A stretch of 64,000 bases of DNA from Sulfurimonas sp. (GCF_028714975.1 NZ_JAQTLH010000005.1:53957-117956); one strand, 5' to 3'; positions 51,106 through 63,689 are shown, numbered from the stretch's first letter. Notes: a model not told the origin generated them from the sequence alone. A program made the numbers and translations.

Positions 51106-51146
51106 GCGACCGTGGTGGAACGGTAGACACACTACCTTGAGGTAGT
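51106..51146 (+). pseudogene. tRNA-Leu 5'-half fragment (acceptor 5' strand, D arm, anticodon stem 5' side); no T arm or 3' acceptor
   Basis: GCGACCGTGGTGGAACGGTAGACACACTACCTTGAGGT matches the first ~38 nt of the intact tRNA at 51187 with 3 mismatches, then diverges. No CGGTCGC 3' strand occurs downstream. Confidence 0.7.
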
Positions 51147-51186: not shown

Positions 51187-51271
51187 GCGGACGTGGTGGA
51201 ATGGTAGACACACTACCTTGAGGTGGTAGCGCATTACGTGTGTGGGGGTTCAAATCCCCCCGTCCGCACCA
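51187..51271 (+). tRNA. tRNA-Leu (anticodon GAG), class II with long variable arm, CCA encoded
   Basis: Hand-folded. Acceptor GCGGACG/CGTCCGC. D arm GTG-GAATGGTAGA-CAC. Anticodon stem CTACC/GGTAG with loop TTGAGGT. Variable arm CGCATTACGTGTGT. T arm GGGGG-TTCAAAT-CCCCC. Ends in ACCA. Confidence 0.9.
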
Positions 51272-51530: not shown

Positions 51531-51944
51531 TTAGTTTAAAGAAGTATGAATATCAATAATACTATTTGTATGAGATTCATATTTTGCCAATTCTCCGAGT
51601 ATAAATTCTTCAAATCTATCTTTTGTAGAGTTCTCCACTAAATTATCTTGATAAAAAGAACAGTCTTCAATCCTCTCATTCATTTCACCTATTAGATATG
51701 AATAATCACGACTATTATTTTTACCTATAACAATGCATTCGTCTCCTTCTTCAGAGCGATTATTGAACTCTAAAAAATTAACTATTTCTTTATAACTATT
51801 TTTCATTCTTTCGAATAGTAAAAATAAATTGGTTTCTTCCCATTTTTTAAGTATTAAAGAATTTTTATTATCATCAAAGTAGAGAGTAGTTATTTCTATT
51901 CCTCTCCCAGTTTCAATATCTATGTTGTAAGTGTTAATTCCCAT
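51531..51944 (-). CDS. Small acidic hypothetical protein (137 aa), last gene of the RES cassette
   Basis: ORF lying 29 nt downstream of the previous gene on the same strand. D/E-rich. No recognisable motif. Confidence 0.55.
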   Translation of the reverse strand: MGINTYNIDIETGRGIEITTLYFDDNKNSLILKKWEETNLFLLFERMKNSYKEIVNFLEFNNRSEEGDECIVIGKNNSRDYSYLIGEMNERIEDCSFYQDNLVENSTKDRFEEFILGELAKYESHTNSIIDIHTSLN

Positions 51945-51973
51945 TTATTATTCCTTATAATATTTTTATAGCT

Positions 51974-52303
51974 CTAAACATATTCTTTAAATATGTTTTT
52001 AATGCCGTTATGTATGATATATTCTTCTTCATAAAAGAATTCAAGTAAATTATTATGAACGTGATTAACAAACAACATATATTTTTCATTCATATTTTCT
52101 TTAAGATACTCAAGTTGTTCTTCATCTTCATCCACAAAATAATGAGCTATATTTTCAAATTCTATGATATTACTATCAACTTCATCATTAATTATTTTTG
52201 AGTGAATTTCAATATCAATATTTTCACCATTGTGCTCAAATTGAAAATTTGTTTTTACATAAGGAGTTTCTTCATCTCCTACAAATACATTGAACGATAG
52301 CAT
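51974..52303 (-). CDS. Small highly acidic hypothetical protein (109 aa)
   Basis: Starts 20 nt after the RES gene stop. About a quarter of residues are D/E by eye ('VDEDEEQLEYLKENMNE', 'FFYEEEY'). No TM helix or signal peptide. Confidence 0.55.
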   Translation of the reverse strand: MLSFNVFVGDEETPYVKTNFQFEHNGENIDIEIHSKIINDEVDSNIIEFENIAHYFVDEDEEQLEYLKENMNEKYMLFVNHVHNNLLEFFYEEEYIIHNGIKNIFKEYV

Positions 52304-52323
52304 ATAATTCCTTTTAGTTAATT

Positions 52324-53325
52324 TTACAATTCTATTCTGCTTGAGGTAATTTGAATATTTTCTACAATATAAACTTCTGTTTCAATAGCATTTAATTTGT
52401 CATCAAAAAATATGGCATAGTTATCACCATCACCAACAGAACTTTTATAGATAACTCCATCAAAGCCACAATGTTTAATAAGTTCGCAAAGGTATTGACT
52501 TGATAAATATTTTAAATGTGCTTCTCTTGGTAAAATTGGCTTTGAAAGTTCGTCACCTAAATGCGTTAAAAATTCCAAATCTGCTATTCCACCTTCGGGA
52601 AGTTTGAACGGGGAGATAATCTTTCTCGGATTCCTTAAATCAGCAAAAATAAGTTTTTCAGATGATTGAAAGCTTGCGACTGTAATTGAATCTTTTTTAT
52701 GAGGTCTTATTTCTGCAATGGCAGTTTCTTTATTTGAAGCTGTATATAAATAAGAAATTCCTAAAGGGTTTGCACGTCCCGCACTTGCAATTTTAACAGG
52801 AGGCTTGCCCATATCTTTTTTATTAATACTATCAATATCAATATTGATTCTTGCACGATAAAAAAGTTCTGGAACTTCGTTTTGCGGTAAAATTATATAG
52901 TTTAGAAGTGTTTGTAAATGCTCATAATCTGGTGATTTTTGTGGAAAAAAACGATTCACATGTTTAAGCTCTTCCTTAAATTCTTTCCAATTCAGTATTT
53001 TAGTTTCATTTTCTTGTTTAGTTGGAATATATAATCCACTCATATTTTCTTGAAGGATGTCTTCTAATAATTTTAAAGTTGTTTCATCATTTAACTGTTG
53101 AAATAAGTTCCAATCATTTTTTAATAATGATGAAATTAATGAACCTTCTTCGTTTGATAGTTCATATCTTTCCAATAGTGGTTCAATATAGGCACTTAAT
53201 ATTTCTGTATTTATTAAAGAAGTATCTGATGTATGACAAAAATCACATTCACCTTTAGAATGTGATTTTCCCTCAATAATAGCACTAAGAAAATTATCAT
53301 TAAAACAATTTGAACAACAAAGCAT
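52324..53325 (-). CDS. Zn-ribbon N-terminal domain (HEPN/RES-NTD1-like) fused to a RES-domain NAD+-targeting toxin
   Basis: N-terminus 'MLCCSNCFNDNFL...SKGECDFCH' (CxxC...CxxC). RES triad context: 'SAGRANPLGISYLYTASNKETAIAEIRP' supplies R and E, and 'DGVIYKSSVGDGDNYAIF' supplies S. Confidence 0.75.
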   Translation of the reverse strand: MLCCSNCFNDNFLSAIIEGKSHSKGECDFCHTSDTSLINTEILSAYIEPLLERYELSNEEGSLISSLLKNDWNLFQQLNDETTLKLLEDILQENMSGLYIPTKQENETKILNWKEFKEELKHVNRFFPQKSPDYEHLQTLLNYIILPQNEVPELFYRARINIDIDSINKKDMGKPPVKIASAGRANPLGISYLYTASNKETAIAEIRPHKKDSITVASFQSSEKLIFADLRNPRKIISPFKLPEGGIADLEFLTHLGDELSKPILPREAHLKYLSSQYLCELIKHCGFDGVIYKSSVGDGDNYAIFFDDKLNAIETEVYIVENIQITSSRIEL

Positions 53326-54270
53326 TTATTGCTCTAGTAAGTATTTTGATATTAACTCTAAGTGATGTTGCATAGATAGTTTTTTTGCATAACCAAGACC
53401 TGGAAAATGGGCTTCTTCAAAAAAGTTTTTAAATTGTTGATAAGCTTCTGTTTTTAATATCAATGAATTCTCTTCTTCGACAGCTTTAACTAACTTTTCT
53501 AAAGCTTCTAGAAATTTTCCTGCTGGGTCTGTTGGTGTATCCACTCTATCTGAAACAAAATGACGAATATACATATCTTCATCTTCTTCTAAATATGTTA
53601 AATGAAGTGCAATAGCATATGCAGGACCGCCACTTTCTGAATAATCATCTCCTACTATTAGAAAATCTCCAAAGCCCTCCATCCCTTCATCATCATATGT
53701 AATATGCAAATCTGAAAAATGTTCTTTATGAGGGTAGTCTCTATTTTTATTCTTTTTGAATCCATCACGTATTAAAATTCTCGGGATACCATTTTTTTTA
53801 AATTGCTTTTGATACAGCTTCCCTGATTGAGCATCCATAAAAATATGTTTATTGATATTCGAAAAACTTTCTGTAAGCTCAGCTAGTTCTTTAGCTTTTG
53901 GATATCCATTATGAATAATCACAATAGATTTATCTAAATTATCATCTATGAAATCTTTAACTTCCAATAAATTACTTTCAGCATCTACAATATATGCAAT
54001 ACTGTATTTATCATATTCACGTAAAATTGTGTTAATCGTATTATCAAATATTGGGAGGGAATTACTTTTAAAGTCACCATACTTAGGGTTAATCACTAAA
54101 ATAAATTCTGTATTTTCTTTTTTTAGGGATTCTATAGCTTTATTTAAAGGTGCAAAGTTTTTTTTAACAGGCTCTATAATAGGTACCATTGCCGATTTAG
54201 TTATAAGTTTGGCATTTTCTCTGAGTAATATTAATTCGTTCTGCTTACCTCTAAGATATGGATGATACAT
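53326..54270 (-). CDS. Beta-protein / sce7725-like family protein
   Basis: The ORF track extends to 54297. The ATG at 54270 gives 'MYHPYLRGKQNELILLRE', the N-terminal hallmark I recall for the phage P4 Beta-protein / sce7725 family. Its stop abuts the RES gene start (53326/53325). Confidence 0.6.
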   Translation of the reverse strand: MYHPYLRGKQNELILLRENAKLITKSAMVPIIEPVKKNFAPLNKAIESLKKENTEFILVINPKYGDFKSNSLPIFDNTINTILREYDKYSIAYIVDAESNLLEVKDFIDDNLDKSIVIIHNGYPKAKELAELTESFSNINKHIFMDAQSGKLYQKQFKKNGIPRILIRDGFKKNKNRDYPHKEHFSDLHITYDDEGMEGFGDFLIVGDDYSESGGPAYAIALHLTYLEEDEDMYIRHFVSDRVDTPTDPAGKFLEALEKLVKAVEEENSLILKTEAYQQFKNFFEEAHFPGLGYAKKLSMQHHLELISKYLLEQ

Positions 54271-55150
54271 TGTAATCCTTTTTGTTAAAAATAACATTCA
54301 TCTTTTGATTTAATAGATATGAAAAATCTTTTTGTTCTTCCATGGATAAGTCTGATTCTAATACTGCGATTTTTAGAGAATTAGGAAATAAGCTTATTGT
54401 GCTAATGAAATTCTTGTGATTTTTACGTTCTTTAAAAGTTCTTAACATTTCTTTATGAATAATTTCAATAGGTAGCTTTATAAATAATTCTTTGCAAGCT
54501 GAATAAATTTTTGTATTTGGTAAGTCAGGAACAGAATTATAGAATTTCTGAATGATTTGTAGATATTCATTTTTACGTAAAAGATTAAACATAGATTCTT
54601 TATTAAGTCTATTCAAACCAGATTTAGCTTTGCGTATTGTCCTTAGCGTGTATTTATCTGTTAATATAATTATCCCTACTGATTCATCAATCAAAGATTT
54701 GATTTCATCTATTTTTGATTCTACAGAAACCACATTCACATATTCAAAAACTTTTTTATAGTTTTCAATTTGGCTTTCAAGTCGCTCAAAATTATCTAGT
54801 TCCGTTTTAATTTCATATACATGTGAAGTTCCATTAAATATGACAACATCAGCTTTAGATGTTTCAACACGCAATTCCGTAAATAAAGAAGAAGAGTTTA
54901 TAGAATGTCGTCCTATTAAGATTTTTTGGGCGATAGCATTCTTGAAAATATATTCATTTCGATATGTTTTTAAAAGTTGTTTATAAGAGCTTTCAAAAAA
55001 ATCTTTTAGTGTAATATTCTGATAAATTTTATCAAGCATATTAAACTCATCAAAAAATTTCACCAATCGCCCAGAATGATGATTGTAAAAAAAATCTCTT
55101 AAAACATTGGATGTAAAAAGGTAAGATAATGCTATATTGTTTTTTTGCAC
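54251..55150 (-). CDS. PD-(D/E)xK nuclease-fold protein, sce7726-like
   Basis: 'YRNEYIFKNAIAQKILIGRHS...FTELRVETSKADVVIFNGTSHVYEIKTELD' carries E...D-x(n)-E-x-K. GTG start with an AAGGGG RBS. A TAAAAT -10-like box lies at 55176-55181 on the minus strand. The 3' end overlaps the next gene by 20 nt. Confidence 0.6.
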   Translation of the reverse strand: MQKNNIALSYLFTSNVLRDFFYNHHSGRLVKFFDEFNMLDKIYQNITLKDFFESSYKQLLKTYRNEYIFKNAIAQKILIGRHSINSSSLFTELRVETSKADVVIFNGTSHVYEIKTELDNFERLESQIENYKKVFEYVNVVSVESKIDEIKSLIDESVGIIILTDKYTLRTIRKAKSGLNRLNKESMFNLLRKNEYLQIIQKFYNSVPDLPNTKIYSACKELFIKLPIEIIHKEMLRTFKERKNHKNFISTISLFPNSLKIAVLESDLSMEEQKDFSYLLNQKMNVIFNKKDYNVSSIS

Positions 55151-55400: not shown

Positions 55401-57068
55401 TCATGGTAATTCCTCTCCATGTATGTCTCTATGTAGTTTTTTAAGAATTTGTATAGTATTAATAAGTTCTTGTTTATATATAGGAACTTTCATAGTATCA
55501 TGAGATAAAGGATTTAGTAATAGCCTTGTGAATTCATCTAATGATTCTAATGTTTGTTTTAAATCTTGAATCTTTTTCTTTTTAAAATTTTGAAATATTT
55601 TTAATTCATTTCTCATAAAAACTAAAATTTCATCTTTTTTAGGGTTGTCGTTTAATTCATCATCAATAAAGTCTTTAAATTCTCTTTTCTCAATTAATAT
55701 TTCTATAGCATCTAGTATCTCTTTATACTTTCCAATATTATTATCAGCTTTAGCTTGAGTAAGCATATCTTTAAACTTAGTAAATTCTTCATCTTGATTA
55801 AATACTATATCTGTTAAGTGATTTTGATTGATATACTTTAATAGTCTTTCAGCTTCTTTTCTTAAATAGTTAGCACATGCTGGATAATCGTGTTTGACTA
55901 AATAATATTCAGCTTTAATAAAATAATCTTCATGAGGGATAATTAATGGCTTTTCAATGCTTGCAGAATCATTAACATACATTTCAAAATACTTCCATTT
56001 ATTTCGTTGAATAGTATCAAATTTATTTTTAGCCATTTGAAAAAAAGCTTTATCATGCGTGAGTATAATGAATTGAAAATTTTTAAAATTATCATCATTT
56101 AGTAAAATATTCAATACTGTATCACGATTGGACATATCAAGCGATACCAGTAAGTCGTCAAGAACCAATATTTTTAACTCACTATCTTTTAGCTTTATTT
56201 GACTAATTGCTAATCTTACTGAAAGTGCAATTGCTGTTAATTTAGCCTCATTAAAATAACTTTGTGGTCTATGAACTGGTAGCATCTCGCCACTACTTTT
56301 CTTGACTGTAATAACTAATTTAATTTTAGGTTTTAACAATACTTGTTTGTCATATTTTCCATTAATAATTTCTACTTTTATCTTGATATCTTTAAAATTA
56401 AATTTTATTAAATAAGTATTTGTAGGTAAATTTATATCTTCTACTTTTGATCTCAGCAAGCTATTAAATTGAGCTAATTTCGATATTAAGTTGATGTAAT
56501 CAGTTTTTTCTACAATCTTTCTAGGTTTATGTTTATTTAGCTCAAGTATTTCATTCCATAAATTTCCAAGATTAACACCATCTTTATCCAATATATGAAA
56601 TATTTCATATTCAAATAAAGAGAATAAATCAATATGTTCTTTATGTAAAAAATTAAAAAATCTAAATAAATATTTATAGTTAATAAAATCACTAGCTAAA
56701 TTGGCATTTGCAATAATTTTATCTTCTTTATTTGTATCTATTGTGTTTTTTGAAATAGTAAAATATTTGTTGTCTGCGTGTGGTTTTTGTAAAGAAATTT
56801 TTACAAATGACTTTTCATCATCATCTTCATGAATATTTACTAGAGATTTTTCATTTTCATTCTCTTGTGTTGATTGAGTAAAGTATTCCTTGATTTTTAT
56901 ATCATTCTTGAAACTACTTTGTAATAATGTGTATAATGACCAATATACTGTGCTTTTACCACTCCCATTCTCACCATAAATTAAAATATTTTTATTTTCA
57001 AATTCTAAGGAGTCTGTGTCTAAAAAAAATTTAAAAAACTTAATATCAAGTGTATTTATTTTATACAT
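55401..57068 (-). CDS. ABC/SMC-type ATPase resembling the PrrC/RloA (AAA_13-like) family, with an uncharacterised helical C-terminal domain
   Basis: Walker A 'IYGENGSGKST'. Signature-like 'YFNEAKLTAIALSVRLAI'. Walker B 'LKILVLDDLLVSLD'. D-loop/H-loop 'IILTHD'. The C-terminal ~190 aa is helical with 'YLRKEAERLL' and 'LLNPLSHD'. The start lies 1 nt after the methyltransferase stop. Confidence 0.65.
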   Translation of the reverse strand: MYKINTLDIKFFKFFLDTDSLEFENKNILIYGENGSGKSTVYWSLYTLLQSSFKNDIKIKEYFTQSTQENENEKSLVNIHEDDDEKSFVKISLQKPHADNKYFTISKNTIDTNKEDKIIANANLASDFINYKYLFRFFNFLHKEHIDLFSLFEYEIFHILDKDGVNLGNLWNEILELNKHKPRKIVEKTDYINLISKLAQFNSLLRSKVEDINLPTNTYLIKFNFKDIKIKVEIINGKYDKQVLLKPKIKLVITVKKSSGEMLPVHRPQSYFNEAKLTAIALSVRLAISQIKLKDSELKILVLDDLLVSLDMSNRDTVLNILLNDDNFKNFQFIILTHDKAFFQMAKNKFDTIQRNKWKYFEMYVNDSASIEKPLIIPHEDYFIKAEYYLVKHDYPACANYLRKEAERLLKYINQNHLTDIVFNQDEEFTKFKDMLTQAKADNNIGKYKEILDAIEILIEKREFKDFIDDELNDNPKKDEILVFMRNELKIFQNFKKKKIQDLKQTLESLDEFTRLLLNPLSHDTMKVPIYKQELINTIQILKKLHRDIHGEELP

Positions 57069-57069
57069 A

Positions 57070-60000
57070 CTAAACCTTCTTGATATAGCTAATTATCTCT
57101 TTTAATTCTGTGTCAATTAGCATTAAGTTATTACGAATTTTATTATAAGGTTCTTTGAGTGTGCTAAATGTTTGATTGATGATCTCTATCTTTTCGGAAA
57201 GCTTTTTATCTTCAATACTTTTATATTCTTTTGATACATAAGAGACAAATTCAAGATTTTTATTTGAAAAATCATTACTAAAATATAGCTCATATACCAT
57301 CGCATCTAATATTTCTTCAAAACTTTCTGTGATATGTTGATTTGACACATATTCATTAATTGGCTCATTCAATGAATTTAAACACACTATATAATCCACT
57401 AATATTTCGAAAGGCTTTGTATTGTCAATTTTTTTTATTGGTATATCTAAGATAGGCTCTTTATCAACTTGATAGTTATCTCCTTGCATTTTACCCTTAT
57501 ATTTGAGCCAAAAGGCTATTAATTTAGAATTTAAAATTGCCGTTAAGTATTTCAAACTAATTCTTTTAGATTTTATTACATAAAATGCTTGATTTACATA
57601 GCTATCAAAATCAACATAGGTAAAAACTGGTCTATTAACACATTTTCTTAGTGATAATATTTTTTCGTCTTTAAAAAAATATTCATTTCTAGCTCTATGA
57701 ATACCATACGGTTTATTGTCTGAAGTTATAATTTTTTTAAATTTATCTAAATGTATTTTTAAATTTGAATATGAGTTCATACTATCTGCTCTTTTAAAAC
57801 TACTATCAGTGTATATTATCCAATATTCATTCTCTATGTTAGATTTATATCGTCCTATTTCTTTTGAAGTATATAGAGGTTTAATTAAAGATAATTCCTT
57901 AGCAGAGAGGTTTAAATTATTTTTCTCTTCTGTCGTTAGGTTAAATATACCTTGATTGAGTTCAAAAGTATTTCCTAAAGTTTCAAGAGATTGTTTTGTT
58001 ACATTGTCATTTGGTGTTACTATTCCTTGCGCCACCTCTTCTTTTTTATCTAAAATAAAATTTCTATTACTTTCAATTTTGTCTAAAATAGAAGATATGT
58101 CTGATTCTAGAAATGTGATATTTTTATCAATTAAATCTTTTTTAATAATGACAGAATTATATATGGAGAATTTAAGATTATATTTTTTTCTTAAAAACTT
58201 TGATAATTCATTTTTTGACAAATTTTTGTTTATGACTTTAGAATAATTACAGGTATATTTTTCATTACTAATGTTTTTTTGTAAAAACATTATCATTGTT
58301 TGTATTCCAGCAGTATCAAAAACTTTATAATCCCCAAAATCGATAAACTCTTTAATGACAGATGAATTTAAAAGTTTATTCCGAAATTTTGAGGCTCCAA
58401 AATTACTAATCCAGTTATTTGTTGCTATGAAAGACAAAATACCATTTGGTTTTAATAAGTCAATTCCTTTACAAGCGAATAGATACCAAAGATCCATTTT
58501 TCCTTGATAGCATTCTAAAACCTTAGTTCTATTAAAAGCTGACTTATTAGTATATTCCTTAATATATGGTGGATTGCCAATTATTACATCAAAACCTTTA
58601 TTATTTAATACTTCAGCAAAGTACAGTTTATAAAAAAATAGTTCTGTTGTTGGTCGTTTTTTTACTAATTCCGTTAAAGATATATCTTCATTTAATTTTT
58701 GAATTATGTCCGTTTGTTTTTTGTCAAAACCGAATAAATTTATATTATTTAACTGACTTTTTAATTCTTCATTGTGTTTATCAAGTTTTTTATTTAGTAT
58801 ATCATCGATTTTATGCTCTATACTTTCTTGTATTTTTGTTTTTTCTGAGTTAGTATGAGCATTATAAAATTTGTGTAATAGTATTTGAATTTCATCAATT
58901 ATAGTCTCATCGGTAGAAAATAATGAGTTTGAATCTTTTTCCAGTGGGTCAAATCCATGAATTGTTTCTAGCAAGCTATTTCCAACCATTATTTTATAAA
59001 ATAAATTTGGTAAAGGTGTTGGTTCCTCTTCATCAACTACGATACTTAACCAAAATCTTAATTTCGCGATTTCTACCGCACTTTGTTCTATATCTATTCC
59101 ATAAATACTATTTTCAATCACTTTTCTTTTTAGTTGTCCAATATTAGCTGTTTTATCAATATTTGAAAGAACAGAAACTATTTCATGTAACATACCCATA
59201 GGAAAAGCACCTGAACCAATAGCTGGGTCTAAAACCTTTATATTGAATAATTGGTTTTCTATTGCTTTTGCATTTTTTCTAATAAAAGTATTATCTGTAC
59301 TTTGATTAAAGACCAACTCTTCAATAGCTGTTATATCGTCAAAATAATTTAATAGATAGTTTATAATTGACTTTTGACACATATAATGAACTATTTCTCT
59401 AGGAGTATAATAAGCACCCTTATCTTTTCTATCTTCAAGTAAATCTTCAAATACACGACCAAGCATTTCAGGGTCAATTGCTATTTCACTATCGTCAGGA
59501 GAATCCTCTATAATTGTAAAATTATAACTATCAAAAATTTCAAATATATCTCTAAAAAGAGAGTTGTCTAATATGATATTTAAAGTATCAAATTCATCTT
59601 TACTAAATAATCCACCATTTAAAAATGGCATTTTACATTTTAATTTTTCAAAGTAATCGTTTTCTCTTTTTTCATTCAGTGCTTCAAAAAATATAGGTTG
59701 TAAAATATCCATATAATAGTTATCGTATTGTATGTATTTATCATATTCATTGTTAAAACATTTTGTTAAGAACTTTTTATCTCCATTTTTCCAGTTGTCA
59801 TCACTTCCTAACCAACCTTTTTTTTCTAAAAAGTATAAAAATACAATTCTCCCCAAAAGTTTTTTCGTAAATAATTTTAATTTAATTTCACTCCCAAAAT
59901 AAGCCATTTGAGGATTTAGATAATCAGATATTTCAAAGTATAATTCTTTATATTGTTTGAAAAATTCTTTTGATACTTTTTCAACCCCAAAAGCATCTTG

Positions 60001-60489
60001 CAAGACTTCTATACTTGGATGTTTTAAATCATTTAATTGAGAATATGCTGTTTTTGTAGCAATATCTTTCCCAAGCACATAGGTATATCGCTTTAGATTT
60101 GACACTTGTTGCTTATTATCTTCATCATAGCTAAATCGTATAAAAGAAAGTCTAAATATTTCATTTTTTAAAGGATTATAAAAGATTGCTATTGCACCAT
60201 CAAGAAGTTCGTCTTCAACTCTTTTTTTTAGTATTGTATTTAAAGACACCCTATTATTTTCGATATCTACTTTTTCAGTTGATAGGAATTCAAAAAAACC
60301 TATTTCTTTTCCATCATCAAGTGCAACTTGCCCTAAAAATTTATATTTTTGAATATTTTTTTGTTCTACTTCAGTATCTGGAATTTGGTAGTCAATATCA
60401 TTCTCTTCAAATCCGTAAAACTTATCATAGATAAACTCTATAAAATTTTCTTTGCTATAACTTGATTGTAAAAATTTTTTAATATCCAA
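57070..60489 (-). CDS. Large gamma-class N6-adenine DNA methyltransferase (Eco57I/TaqI-like catalytic core plus C-terminal target-recognition region); no nuclease motif seen
   Basis: Motif I 'VLDPAIGSGAFPMG' precedes motif IV 'VIIGNPPYIKEY'. A TaqI_C-like 'YQVDKEPILDIPI' is present. The N-terminal ~350 aa has unknown function, and I could not find a D...ExK motif in it. Confidence 0.8.
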   Translation of the reverse strand: MDIKKFLQSSYSKENFIEFIYDKFYGFEENDIDYQIPDTEVEQKNIQKYKFLGQVALDDGKEIGFFEFLSTEKVDIENNRVSLNTILKKRVEDELLDGAIAIFYNPLKNEIFRLSFIRFSYDEDNKQQVSNLKRYTYVLGKDIATKTAYSQLNDLKHPSIEVLQDAFGVEKVSKEFFKQYKELYFEISDYLNPQMAYFGSEIKLKLFTKKLLGRIVFLYFLEKKGWLGSDDNWKNGDKKFLTKCFNNEYDKYIQYDNYYMDILQPIFFEALNEKRENDYFEKLKCKMPFLNGGLFSKDEFDTLNIILDNSLFRDIFEIFDSYNFTIIEDSPDDSEIAIDPEMLGRVFEDLLEDRKDKGAYYTPREIVHYMCQKSIINYLLNYFDDITAIEELVFNQSTDNTFIRKNAKAIENQLFNIKVLDPAIGSGAFPMGMLHEIVSVLSNIDKTANIGQLKRKVIENSIYGIDIEQSAVEIAKLRFWLSIVVDEEEPTPLPNLFYKIMVGNSLLETIHGFDPLEKDSNSLFSTDETIIDEIQILLHKFYNAHTNSEKTKIQESIEHKIDDILNKKLDKHNEELKSQLNNINLFGFDKKQTDIIQKLNEDISLTELVKKRPTTELFFYKLYFAEVLNNKGFDVIIGNPPYIKEYTNKSAFNRTKVLECYQGKMDLWYLFACKGIDLLKPNGILSFIATNNWISNFGASKFRNKLLNSSVIKEFIDFGDYKVFDTAGIQTMIMFLQKNISNEKYTCNYSKVINKNLSKNELSKFLRKKYNLKFSIYNSVIIKKDLIDKNITFLESDISSILDKIESNRNFILDKKEEVAQGIVTPNDNVTKQSLETLGNTFELNQGIFNLTTEEKNNLNLSAKELSLIKPLYTSKEIGRYKSNIENEYWIIYTDSSFKRADSMNSYSNLKIHLDKFKKIITSDNKPYGIHRARNEYFFKDEKILSLRKCVNRPVFTYVDFDSYVNQAFYVIKSKRISLKYLTAILNSKLIAFWLKYKGKMQGDNYQVDKEPILDIPIKKIDNTKPFEILVDYIVCLNSLNEPINEYVSNQHITESFEEILDAMVYELYFSNDFSNKNLEFVSYVSKEYKSIEDKKLSEKIEIINQTFSTLKEPYNKIRNNLMLIDTELKEIISYIKKV

Positions 60490-60506
60490 GGCTTGTCCTT
60501 TTAATG

Positions 60507-63500
60507 CTAAACAAATGTTTCACTTAAAATAATATCCATATTAATTTTAAATTTTTGTTGCTCTTTTTTTGTTTCAAATAAACTATATTTGTCTTGTAGT
60601 TTATTGATTTCTTTAGCTATTTCATAATCTTGATATTTTTTAGAAATAGAAATTACTTCCTTACTAAGATTTTGTAATTTACCATCTCTAATTGTTTTTG
60701 TAAAAATATTAAATGTTTCTTTCTCAATAAACTCTTTATCTATCCAAGATTTAAACAACTTAATAGCTTGTTTATCAAACTTGTGTTCAACTCGTATATT
60801 TGTAGTTTGATGGGCGATACCATTTAATTCTTTTTCATAAAATTTCATAGCAGTTTGAACATGCTCATAGTGATAATTTTGTATAGGTAATATAGCCACT
60901 TCTTTTCTATCAGTTTTTAATTCTGTCGCCATTTGAATAAAATTTACTGCTTCACATTTTTCATTATTAACTTTGTAGTAGTTCTTTGATTCATAGTTCT
61001 TTATAAAAACAAATGAAGCCTCTTTTACATTTTCTATGTCTCTTTGAACTCTGACTTTTTTAGGTAATTTATATAGTGCATTGAATTTTTTAGGATTTGC
61101 TTCTTTAAAAGTTCTAATTTCTTCTAAATATTTCAATTCTTCGTCAGGCTTTTCAATATCTGTTTCGTATAGTGCAACAGTTCCAACTTTTTCATCTTTT
61201 GAATAGATTTGACTATCCTCTCCGACTGCATGGTGAAAAGTTTGTAATTTTATAAATGCTTTTTTAGATAGTTCTATTAGGCTTTCACTTTGAGCTGTTG
61301 GCTTAAAGTTATATATGAAGATTTCACTATGCTTCGTTCCAATACGATTTATCCTACCAATTCTTTGCATTAGTCGTGTAGAGTTCCAAGGAATATCATA
61401 GTTATAAACTATATTAGCCCGATGCATATTAACACCCTCACTTAAAGTGTCAGTTGAAATAATTACATTATATTCATCTTTTTGTGTAGAATAATTAGCA
61501 TCAAAATTTTCTCTAATGGTGTCTCTTAATTTATCTCTATTTCCACCATGAACAGTTAAAACTTTATTATAGTCTTGAAGCTCTTGTTCAAGATAAAGAG
61601 CAGTTTGTTTTGATTCTGTAAAAACTACAATTTTACCTTCAGTGTGAGTATCTAAAATAGATTTAAATTTCTCTAACTTAGGGTCATAATCAACTTTATT
61701 CCATAAGTTTATTAAATCTTCTAAAATAAGTAAATCACTTTCTAATTGTTCTAAAAACTCATTTGTAAAATCACTTGAATCAAATGCTTTCATTTTTTCA
61801 TTTTCTAAAAAATAATCAATTCTACTTTCAAAGTCTTCCTCATCCTTGTCAATCATATCGTAAAGATTGAAATGTTTAGAAGGGATATAAACAACACCTG
61901 ATTTGAACATTTGAATTAAATAGTCAAGGTTTTTAGTTTGTTTATTTATTGTAGATTTAAAAGCAGTGAATGAACTTTCAAGTCGTTTGACTAACATCGT
62001 TTTCATAATATCGGCAAGACTTAAGGCACTTTTTTCAAAAAAACCTTCTTGTACTTGTCCATATTTTTTTCTGCCAGATTGATTTAGATTAGCTAGAATC
62101 TGATATCTGTAATACTGTAAATCTTTTGTCAGAATTGTAATCGTTTTATCAAAGATTTCAAGTAGATTATCATCTAGCTTATATTCAAGTTCAATAACAG
62201 GATTAATAATTGGAATATTTAAACCTTGCTCTATTAAATCTTTTTTATAAGTTTCATTTATTTGTATATCAGTTCTTGTTCTCCTAACCATTACTTCTCG
62301 TAAAATATTATCTCTAACTCTTTTTGATAATCTTTCAAGTTCAATCAGCTCACTAGAAGATAATTCAAGAGAGTTTTCTTTTTTACCAATTATCTCTTTG
62401 TATTGTTTGTCAATACTTGCAAAAAAACTTTCTAAATTTGGATGTGAATCAATTGTTGAATTTCTTTTATCTTGAAATAAATATAATTGATTAGCAATAT
62501 CTTGTGGTTTGTTATTTAATGGTGTAGCGGATACAAGAAGTATCTTTTTTTTGTATTTAACTTCTTCTTTACAAATTCTCTCCAACTCTTTATATCGCGA
62601 AGTAGAAAAGTTCTTGAATTTATGAGATTCATCAATTATAATCATTTCATAATCTTCTGTATCTTTTATTTTTTCCAATGCTCCATACGATTTAAATACA
62701 AAGTGTCTAATACTTCCTATCTGAAATCTTTTAAATGTTTCAACCCACTCTTTTTCAATAGACGGAGGGGCGATAATTAGTATTTGACCTTTTGTCTCAA
62801 AACATAATTTTTTAATAATCATTGCACTTGTTATAGTCTTTCCAAGTCCAACAACATCCGATAGAAAAAAGCCATTATGCCTTCTGATTTTAGATAATCC
62901 CTCATTAACTGCATCAATTTGATATGCTAACTTCATATATCCTTTTGGTAAGTCATCTGCAACAGAAGAGTCATAATCAACTCTATCTTCAAAATGTTCT
63001 ATTAAAAATTTCAAATATAGTTCATAAGGAGTTATCTCTTTGAGATAGCTATTCTGCTTAATAGTGTCTATATCAGTTTCAGTAATTTCAATAGATTTAG
63101 CCCATAAGTCTTCAAATTCAGTTAATGCAAACTCTATATCTTCACTATATTTTAGTTCAACATTAAATTCATAATTTTTAGATAAACCATTTTCAGTAAG
63201 ATTTGAGCTACCTGTAATAACTGAACCTCTGTATTCAGTAGTTCCATCATGCCGCTCAATGTTATTTTCTCGTAAAATATATATTTTAGAATGTATGTTT
63301 TTATCTTGTGAAATTTTTATTTCAAGGCGGTTTTCAACAATCATTTTTATAAATAAATTTACACTTTCATCGATCGACTGAGAATACTCTTCTTTTTCTA
63401 AAATATCTTTTTGATTATCAACAAACTCTTGATTAAACTTTTCATAATCTAATAAATTGAATTTTTTACCCCTATTCTTAGCATCAATAGTAAGTTTATC

Positions 63501-63689
63501 AACATTAATACCTACAAGAATTCTAACTTTTTCAATGTTATTAAGTAGTGAGGCTATTTTTTTAAAACCACTAATTCTAAAATAACCTATTAAAAATTCT
63601 AAGTTTTTAATATCATAATGTGTGAGAATATCTTTCAGCCTATTCTCTAATGTATTAGTATCTTGATTTGTGAAAAATTTGGAGTTCAT
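60507..63689 (-). CDS. PLD-family nuclease domain fused to an SNF2-family helicase/translocase
   Basis: N-terminus 'EFLIGYFRISGF' plus 'NIHSKIYILRE...GSSNLTENGL' (single HKD-type motif). Helicase motif I 'VVGLGKTITS', II 'IIIDESHKFKN', III 'VSATPLNN', VI 'LMQRIGRINRIG'. The C-terminal ~250 aa is unassigned. Confidence 0.8.
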   Translation of the reverse strand: MNSKFFTNQDTNTLENRLKDILTHYDIKNLEFLIGYFRISGFKKIASLLNNIEKVRILVGINVDKLTIDAKNRGKKFNLLDYEKFNQEFVDNQKDILEKEEYSQSIDESVNLFIKMIVENRLEIKISQDKNIHSKIYILRENNIERHDGTTEYRGSVITGSSNLTENGLSKNYEFNVELKYSEDIEFALTEFEDLWAKSIEITETDIDTIKQNSYLKEITPYELYLKFLIEHFEDRVDYDSSVADDLPKGYMKLAYQIDAVNEGLSKIRRHNGFFLSDVVGLGKTITSAMIIKKLCFETKGQILIIAPPSIEKEWVETFKRFQIGSIRHFVFKSYGALEKIKDTEDYEMIIIDESHKFKNFSTSRYKELERICKEEVKYKKKILLVSATPLNNKPQDIANQLYLFQDKRNSTIDSHPNLESFFASIDKQYKEIIGKKENSLELSSSELIELERLSKRVRDNILREVMVRRTRTDIQINETYKKDLIEQGLNIPIINPVIELEYKLDDNLLEIFDKTITILTKDLQYYRYQILANLNQSGRKKYGQVQEGFFEKSALSLADIMKTMLVKRLESSFTAFKSTINKQTKNLDYLIQMFKSGVVYIPSKHFNLYDMIDKDEEDFESRIDYFLENEKMKAFDSSDFTNEFLEQLESDLLILEDLINLWNKVDYDPKLEKFKSILDTHTEGKIVVFTESKQTALYLEQELQDYNKVLTVHGGNRDKLRDTIRENFDANYSTQKDEYNVIISTDTLSEGVNMHRANIVYNYDIPWNSTRLMQRIGRINRIGTKHSEIFIYNFKPTAQSESLIELSKKAFIKLQTFHHAVGEDSQIYSKDEKVGTVALYETDIEKPDEELKYLEEIRTFKEANPKKFNALYKLPKKVRVQRDIENVKEASFVFIKNYESKNYYKVNNEKCEAVNFIQMATELKTDRKEVAILPIQNYHYEHVQTAMKFYEKELNGIAHQTTNIRVEHKFDKQAIKLFKSWIDKEFIEKETFNIFTKTIRDGKLQNLSKEVISISKKYQDYEIAKEINKLQDKYSLFETKKEQQKFKINMDIILSETFV

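Follow-up and report, generated by a model that had tools for sequence, protein, structure and literature searches.

A stretch of 64,000 nucleotides from Sulfurimonas sp. (GCF_028714975.1, NZ_JAQTLH010000005.1:53957-117956; hereafter the window, with positions counted from its first letter) carries, at positions 51,531 to 55,150, five consecutive open reading frames (ORFs) on the minus strand. The first three, here called genes A, B and C, probably form a three-gene, toxin-antitoxin-like abortive-infection module that depletes NAD+ and is related to both the gop-beta-cII locus of phage P4 and the aRES proteins; the last two, ORFs D and E, lie outside it. Gene A belongs to the sce7726 family, of which P4 cII is a member, gene B belongs to the sce7725 family, and gene C encodes a zinc-ribbon protein with HEPN/RES-NTD1 and RES domains. 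As far as sequence comparison goes, the triad looks like a widespread hybrid of two validated anti-phage systems and is itself a candidate. An earlier interpretation of this DNA, made without database searches (the sequence-only reading), had joined all five ORFs into one candidate system.

The three genes are tightly packed. Gene A (54251-55150) begins with a GTG codon and encodes 299 residues. Gene B can be read from 53326 to 54297 as its longest ORF (323 residues); conservation, however, places the start at Met10 (54270), so that the gene occupies 53326-54270 and its product has 314 residues. Counted from this methionine, A and B overlap by 20 nt. Genes B and C abut at 53326/53325, with the start of C (52324-53325, 333 residues) placed directly against the stop codon of B. 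An AAGGGG box stands 8 nt ahead of the GTG of gene A. The coordinates, orientation, spacing and ribosome-binding site given in the sequence-only reading were all reproduced. The -10-like TAAAAT box that it also described does exist upstream of gene A, in AT-rich DNA, but carries no weight because a promoter scan performed at chance level (28 sites, against 27.5 expected in shuffled sequences). The motifs that it quoted, ADVVIFNGTSHVYEIK, MYHPYLRGKQNELILLRE, CxxC...CxxC, GRANPLG, AIAEIRP and IYKSSVG, are all present, and they are far from chance occurrences: in 68-78 homologues, little or no variation is seen at the key positions, which are C3, C4, C7, C27, C30, R184, E205 and S295 in gene C and D101, E113 and K115 in gene A.

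The order A-B-C is strictly conserved. A genome scan limited to one genome per species yielded 80 loci, 78 of them with gene A homologues. A homologue of gene C lies directly downstream of B in 74 of these; the contigs of the other 6 end too soon, which leaves 74 out of 74 assessable loci. B and C are separated by -32 to +13 nt at almost every one of them. The hosts belong to the Campylobacterota, Nitrospinota, Desulfobacterota, Planctomycetota, Bacteroidota, Alpha-, Beta- and Gammaproteobacteria, Spirochaetota and other groups. Similarly, a metagenome scan seeded with divergent members found RES after B in 61 loci, with two assessable exceptions (61/63), once 10 contigs ending less than 400 nt after B and 7 contigs without room for a full gene had been set aside. 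Among the viral contigs of IMG/VR, RES is present at 19 of 32 loci, 10 of those 19 being copies of one contig family. The sce7725 family as a whole is large, with 4,175 matches at E<=0.001 in a collection clustered at 90% identity and ~1,490 clusters at 50% identity, and is spread over many phyla, plasmids and viral contigs.

Gene A was likened to sce7726 in the sequence-only reading, and the NCBIfam model sce7726_fam bears this out (8.3e-58; 195.3 bits against a cut-off of 70 bits for NF033832). The protein also matches the PADLOC 'cll' model of gop-beta-cII (4.1e-19), P4 cII itself (BLASTP, 2e-11) and PHROG 984 (8e-27), and Pfam PF26915 (Phage_P4_cII) is listed among the precomputed annotations of a 96%-identical copy in another Sulfurimonas locus. 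Conversely, the cII protein of P4 (NC_001609) belongs to the sce7726 family (2.5e-44) and is so named in RefSeq, which confirms the proposed link to gop-beta-cII. Across 31 A/cII proteins, P4 cII among them, residues E66, E92, D101, E113, K115, D119, R123 and Q127 are invariant. By motif, gene A thus bears a PD-(D/E)xK-type signature (E66, E92, D101 and E113-x-K115), as had been claimed. A match to Pfam DUF6602 stayed below threshold (0.036).

Gene C matches Pfam RES (1.2e-13; 51.8 bits, gathering score 23.2) and HEPN_RES_NTD1 (PF18870; 3.4e-8; 34.3 bits, gathering score 27.4), with a conserved CxxC...CxxC zinc ribbon N-terminal to both domains. This succession of zinc ribbon, NTD1 and RES was noted earlier (Anantharaman et al., 2013; PMC3710099). 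All 68 homologues keep C3, C4, C7, C27, C30, R184 (within GRANPLG), E205, R207 and S295, and RefSeq labels the homologues 'RES family NAD+ phosphorylase'. The zinc ribbon and the RES domain recognised by eye in the sequence are therefore well founded.

Gene B is a clear member of the sce7725 family, as proposed (sce7725_fam, 7.8e-98; 328 bits against a cut-off of 60 bits for NF033831), and matches PHROG 34524 (9.5e-85). Genes A and B are adjacent and both exceed the curated cut-offs of their families, as befits an sce7726-sce7725 gene pair. The further claim that B is Beta-like is weakly supported: it is probably a remote relative of P4 Beta and not a member of Pfam Beta_protein. The kinship is retained because weak matches between profile hidden Markov models (HMMs) and proteins run in both directions and the two proteins have a common structural neighbour. 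When the sce7725 HMM was searched against 120 Beta proteins and 6,222 decoy ORFs, Beta proteins took all of the first 25 non-self places (7e-5 to 0.04); searching from Beta to sce7725 gave a similar but weaker signal. B and Beta align over a Y-x-P-x-L-R-x-[KR]-x-x-E-L motif near the N-terminus and, further on, over a G-D motif. AlphaFold2 models of B (predicted local distance difference test, pLDDT, 88; predicted template modelling score, pTM, 0.89) and of a P4-type Beta (pLDDT 90) are both beta/alpha barrels. Foldseek against the PDB returned only TIM barrels for B, all of them weak (TM-score <=0.46). In BFVD, a protein of Gordonia phage Powerball (A0A5J6TRS2) is the best neighbour common to the two models and clearly the top match of each (B, E 8e-8 and TM-score 0.65; P4-type Beta, E 4.5e-12 and TM-score 0.70). 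That B and P4 Beta are directly linked by sequence was rejected, as BLASTP between them, Pfam and hhalign were all non-significant. In the model of B, invariant polar residues (His, Asp, Glu, Lys and Arg) come just after predicted barrel strands; R7, K9, E33, H120, D202, H223 and H237 are among the invariant residues of the barrel. Residues at the strand ends of a barrel are typical of TIM-barrel active sites, and because the invariant polar residues of B are placed in this way, the protein may have an enzymatic role instead of serving as a passive antitoxin.

The third position is not always filled by RES. In one locus a HEPN_AbiU2 gene follows the sce7726-sce7725 pair (2.4e-7, above the gathering score), and in two others the third gene encodes a GNAT acetyltransferase (3e-7); one of these is on an Enterococcus faecium plasmid, the other in a 'Listeria phage' record that is unverified and has annotated neighbours matching those of the plasmid. 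P4 and its relatives in Pseudomonas and Acinetobacter have a Gop-like gene of 109-143 residues ahead of Beta, and a convergent cII. Taken at the level of gene content, the pattern is that of a conserved A-B pair with an apparently swappable toxic effector in third position, replacement being rare among the relatives. Many defence systems are built in this way. A 492-residue ATPase that follows A-B in two further loci (L205/L206, 7009-8487) resembles AriA (PDB AriA, 1e-15) and was not counted as an effector variant, since it may belong to a separate PARIS-like system. Two other neighbours were seen in passing: a DUF2971 protein that follows RES in a viral scaffold from faeces (L086, 4947-5834), and a 181-residue protein with an HExxH motif (HELCHAIRH) spotted by eye (L195, 6969-7514), for which a search found nothing.

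In the mechanism proposed for A-B-C, gene C would be the effector, a RES enzyme that, once released, destroys NAD+ and arrests the infected cell. Like RES toxins and aRES, for which this chemistry has been shown, it would most likely act by phosphorolysis, with nicotinamide and ADP-ribose-1''-phosphate as the products. Genes A and B would form a conserved sensing and restraining pair, in which B may hold C inactive, by analogy with the neutralisation of toxic Gop by P4 Beta, and A may tie the module to a signal from the phage, whether nucleic acid or protein; for gop-beta-cII that signal is orf184. The anti-phage function, the depletion of NAD+ and the assignment of sensing and restraint to particular proteins are inferred.

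The first relative, gop-beta-cII of satellite phage P4 ('gop_beta_cll' in PADLOC and DefenseFinder; Ghisotti 1990; Rousset 2022), protects against lambda and P1, and its Gop protein is toxic without Beta (PMC9122126); phage orf184 triggers the toxicity (bioRxiv 10.1101/2023.04.06.535777). The two systems share the cII/sce7726 protein, which is recognised by common NCBIfam and PADLOC models and keeps E...D...ExK invariant in A and P4 cII. They also share a second protein of ~310-355 residues with a predicted beta/alpha-barrel-like fold and a common N-terminal motif, a gene for a toxic protein (in the triad, a predicted one), and a location in mobile elements and hotspots. However, B goes unrecognised by the Beta_protein and PADLOC 'beta' models, and the effector of the triad is a 333-residue zinc-ribbon RES protein without a PADLOC gop match, against the 109-143 residues of Gop. 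The gene order differs as well: A>B>C on one strand here, gop>beta with cII convergent in the P4 type.

The second relative, aRES, comprises proteins of 300-600 residues with RES and PF18870 that occur in defence islands, act against phages by depleting NAD+ to nicotinamide and ADP-ribose-1''-phosphate, and are described as stand-alone rather than operonic (Osterman et al., January 2026; bioRxiv 10.64898/2026.01.28.702374). Gene C has RES (PF08808) and PF18870 within 333 residues, lies in a defence island and appears to keep the conserved RES active-site residues R184, E205 and S295; the same chemistry would be expected of it. C is likened to aRES by domains, length and active-site residues, not by identity to the tested aRES proteins, and its domains were called by Pfam gathering scores, where the aRES study used an hhsearch probability >80%. 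It differs from aRES in its extra N-terminal zinc ribbon and in being the third gene of an sce7726-sce7725 operon, at odds with a stand-alone gene. The term 'undescribed', used in the sequence-only reading, applies to the triad alone, as far as the searchable literature goes; both of its halves have validated relatives.

Xre-RES, MbcTA, ParST and NatRT resemble the triad in that a RES toxin degrading NAD+ is encoded beside a restraining protein. In contrast to these type II pairs, no Xre, COG5642, helix-turn-helix or DUF2384-type antitoxin was found among A, B, D and E with Pfam and NCBIfam; the partners here are a 314-residue barrel protein and a 299-residue protein with a nuclease fold by motif. 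Gene C is twice as long as their toxins, has the zinc ribbon and NTD1, and scores only 13.5 bits against the NCBIfam Res_ParT toxin model, whose cut-off is 110. PD-Lambda-2, from work by Vassallo in 2022, is reportedly a three-gene anti-phage system. The comparison with it concerns one component, PD-Lambda-2_C, which is related to P4 Beta and which B does not match. P4 Beta (L001, 651-1718) matches PADLOC PD-Lambda-2_C at 8e-14 and 1.7e-8; the third protein of PD-Lambda-2 is therefore a relative of the Beta family, and Beta-like proteins recur in multi-gene defence systems.

Several observations weigh against the module as proposed. One concerns gene B, which has no match to Pfam Beta_protein (PF14350) even at E<=10 nor to PADLOC 'beta' at E<=0.1, models that P4 Beta itself matches at 4e-56 and 8e-188, respectively, while hhalign of B with Beta gave a probability of 3-4%. 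The analogy by which B would restrain C as Beta restrains Gop is weak because B is not detectable as a Beta_protein member and because of this low profile-profile probability. The profile of gene A found only spurious CagY repeat matches among PDB sequences, which leaves its nuclease fold unconfirmed, and gene C matched no solved RES structure in the same database. The partners A and B may be unneeded for the action of C because aRES works alone. Conversely, the A-B pair may be a system in its own right, because ten IMG/VR loci contain sce7726-sce7725 without a co-directional third gene. Several of these bare pairs adjoin an integrase or a P4 alpha-like primase in prophage- or satellite-like contigs, where they may represent a two-gene form of the system. 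PADLOC v2 would not call the cassette, as only its cll model fires and the second and third genes of the triad have no model, a gap in current tools. Finally, the triad is annotated in RefSeq, yet no experiment or functional paper on sce7726-sce7725-RES was found in the searchable literature.

The cassette lies in a mobile, defence-island setting. GC content falls from ~0.39 to ~0.25 at 51 kb, adjoining a plus-strand tRNA-Leu(GAG) gene (51187-51271; ARAGORN; Rfam tRNA, 57.6 bits) that stands 259 nt past the end of ORF E; the cassette therefore opens a low-GC island, with the tRNA at its boundary. The five genes and the tRNA (55221-51104, 4.1 kb) form one block that is 96% identical to three other Sulfurimonas loci (L002, L097 and L098). 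The genomes sharing it differ in their flanks, and the tRNA-Leu travels with the cassette. Other triads also occur on RefSeq plasmids, annotated as 'sce7726 family / sce7725 family / RES family NAD+ phosphorylase', and a Pseudomonas aeruginosa integrative mobilizable element (IME) has been reported as a carrier (PMC9394441). Type I restriction-modification (RM) specificity subunits account for 6 of the 107 nearest large neighbours of other triads in a PADLOC scan, a figure for top families only and not a measure of total defence enrichment.

Further traces of mobility surround the block. Self-BLAST of the window revealed a partial copy of the tRNA-Leu gene on the plus strand (51111-51143; 5' half, 33 nt, 97% identical), 44 nt upstream of the full gene. 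In L097 (2264-2500 and 6675-7000), direct repeats made of a tRNA fragment and ~100 bp bracket the five-gene block, which is preceded by a 107-bp relic of the 3' end of a RES gene fused to a tRNA fragment. These partial tRNA copies, repeats and the RES relic are signs of repeated insertion or recombination and decay at a tRNA hotspot. Upstream of the cassette in the window lies a separate defence-type operon on the minus strand (55401-63689), which encodes a 1060-residue PLD and SNF2 helicase (PADLOC DrmD, 1e-42; 'HKD+Snf2', 3e-40), a 1139-residue type IIG-like methyltransferase (REase_MTase_IIG, 5.5e-86; DrmMI, 1e-27; Eco57I, 4e-36) and a 555-residue SMC/ABC-type ATPase (SMC_N, 6e-16; mad3, 1e-11). 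This DISARM/type-IIG-like operon is unlinked from the cassette in L097, where two other methyltransferases are found instead. A 6.6-kb contig binned as 'Nanoarchaeota archaeon' (JAUYGA010000123.1) shares 97% DNA identity with the Sulfurimonas cassette, which most likely reflects misbinning and not presence in an archaeon.

This mobility would also suit an addiction module, in which C would act as the toxin and B, A or both as the antitoxin, and the triad would spread selfishly by stabilising plasmids and islands without any role in phage defence. RES toxins are classical toxins of type II toxin-antitoxin systems and are reported to be involved in persistence (PMC11535050), the triad is found on plasmids, in an IME and at a tRNA hotspot, and B and C are translationally coupled as toxin-antitoxin pairs are. 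However, gop-beta-cII and aRES, which among characterised systems are nearest to its two halves, both act against phages (PMC9122126; bioRxiv 10.64898/2026.01.28.702374), the neighbourhood is rich in defence genes, no Xre- or DUF2384-type antitoxin was found, the Res_ParT score is low, and three genes with two large, enzyme-like partners are atypical of simple addiction modules. Addiction alone is thus an unlikely account of the triad.

Less likely again is that two independent systems, a stand-alone C of the aRES type and a two-gene A-B, have merely come to lie side by side in defence islands. Such a view takes its strength from the aRES proteins, which have the same two Pfam domains and are reported as stand-alone, from the A-B pairs without RES beside integrases or P4 alpha-like primases, and from more distant homologues of C that stand alone on plasmids of, among others, Bacillus tropicus and Serratia. 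However, these solitary proteins share only 22-31% identity with C, whereas its closest homologues (35-39%) are all members of triads, and the sole solitary close homologue has IS6100 where A-B would be. Identical order and orientation with overlapping or abutting stop and start codons, at ~135 loci in many phyla, go far beyond what co-residence would give, and in relatives the third position is taken by other toxins. The three-gene module remains the preferred reading on both counts.

The remaining question of composition concerns ORFs D (51974-52303, 109 residues) and E (51531-51944, 137 residues), which follow C on the minus strand after gaps of 20 nt (C/D) and 29 nt (D/E). Their position suits membership of the operon: both are co-oriented with the triad, AAGGA boxes resembling Shine-Dalgarno sequences precede both (7 nt upstream for D), terminator prediction found none at the cassette, and both belong to the 4.1-kb block. 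Both are also strongly acidic, as had been observed, with an isoelectric point of 4.3 and a net charge of -19 for D, and of 4.5 and -13 for E. However, neither occurs in any of the ~135 other triads, that is, in any triad outside Sulfurimonas, and the sequence downstream of RES varies among all of these. Among 18,577 ORFs from 214 loci, relatives of D were found only in the same three Sulfurimonas loci (two contigs of metagenome-assembled genomes), and its cluster in the protein collection has three members, all from Sulfurimonas; a search with the concatenated D and E proteins returned relatives of E alone and missed this existing cluster, and is uninformative on D. No match to D or E was found in Pfam, NCBIfam, PADLOC or PHROGs, and nothing in viral contigs.

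ORF E belongs to a small conserved family (eight relatives or clusters, with 48 invariant positions), which occurs without the triad, and without D, in four loci of three contexts at 55-61% identity. In one of these it is convergent with a type III RM system (L095, 280-687), in another it forms part of a 305-residue fusion (P0398) with a long acidic tail after a type I RM system (L096, 6001-6918), and the third context is a Rep3 plasmid-like contig (L093/L094, 3663-4082). The E family may therefore be a defence-island gene in its own right. In comparison with the L097 copy, synonymous and non-synonymous differences number 9 and 9 in D and 12 and 15 in E, against 14 and 3 in B, proportions that are compatible with real but less constrained genes. 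By these comparisons, D and E are local passengers outside the conserved system, and they are probably co-transcribed cargo of the Sulfurimonas lineage. The idea that E is a RegB/RelE-like RNase and D its antitoxin was rejected: hhalign with T4 RegB gave 5.6% over 37 columns, and E occurs without a D-like partner. Matches to Pfam REGB_T4 in three members of the E family were below threshold (0.004-0.054). D was also compared with the acidic tail of the 305-residue fusion, to which it shows no similarity. The five-gene system of the sequence-only reading, with D and E as immunity, antitoxin or DNA-mimic proteins for the RES effector, is accordingly very improbable, being largely excluded by conservation, and only the A-B-C part of the neighbourhood is a conserved unit. 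Before small ORFs at the tail of a defence operon are counted among its components, their conservation should be checked.

A broader scheme can be entertained, tentatively. The A-B pair would be a widespread and ancient sensor or regulator chassis with interchangeable effectors, RES being dominant, HEPN-AbiU2 RNase, GNAT and Gop also serving, and none being present in some prophages and satellites. P4 gop-beta-cII and part of the 'stand-alone' aRES proteins would then be branches of one modular defence superfamily, and B would be a true enzyme that might make, destroy or sense a small molecule or modify the effector. Should the triad be a defence system, more bacteria would be counted as defending themselves by NAD+ depletion, and effectors of the aRES type would also come under the control of cII- and Beta-like partner proteins. 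The P4 gop-beta-cII locus, known for 35 years, would gain a large family context, and with it a tractable enzymatic effector through which the roles of cII and Beta might be worked out.

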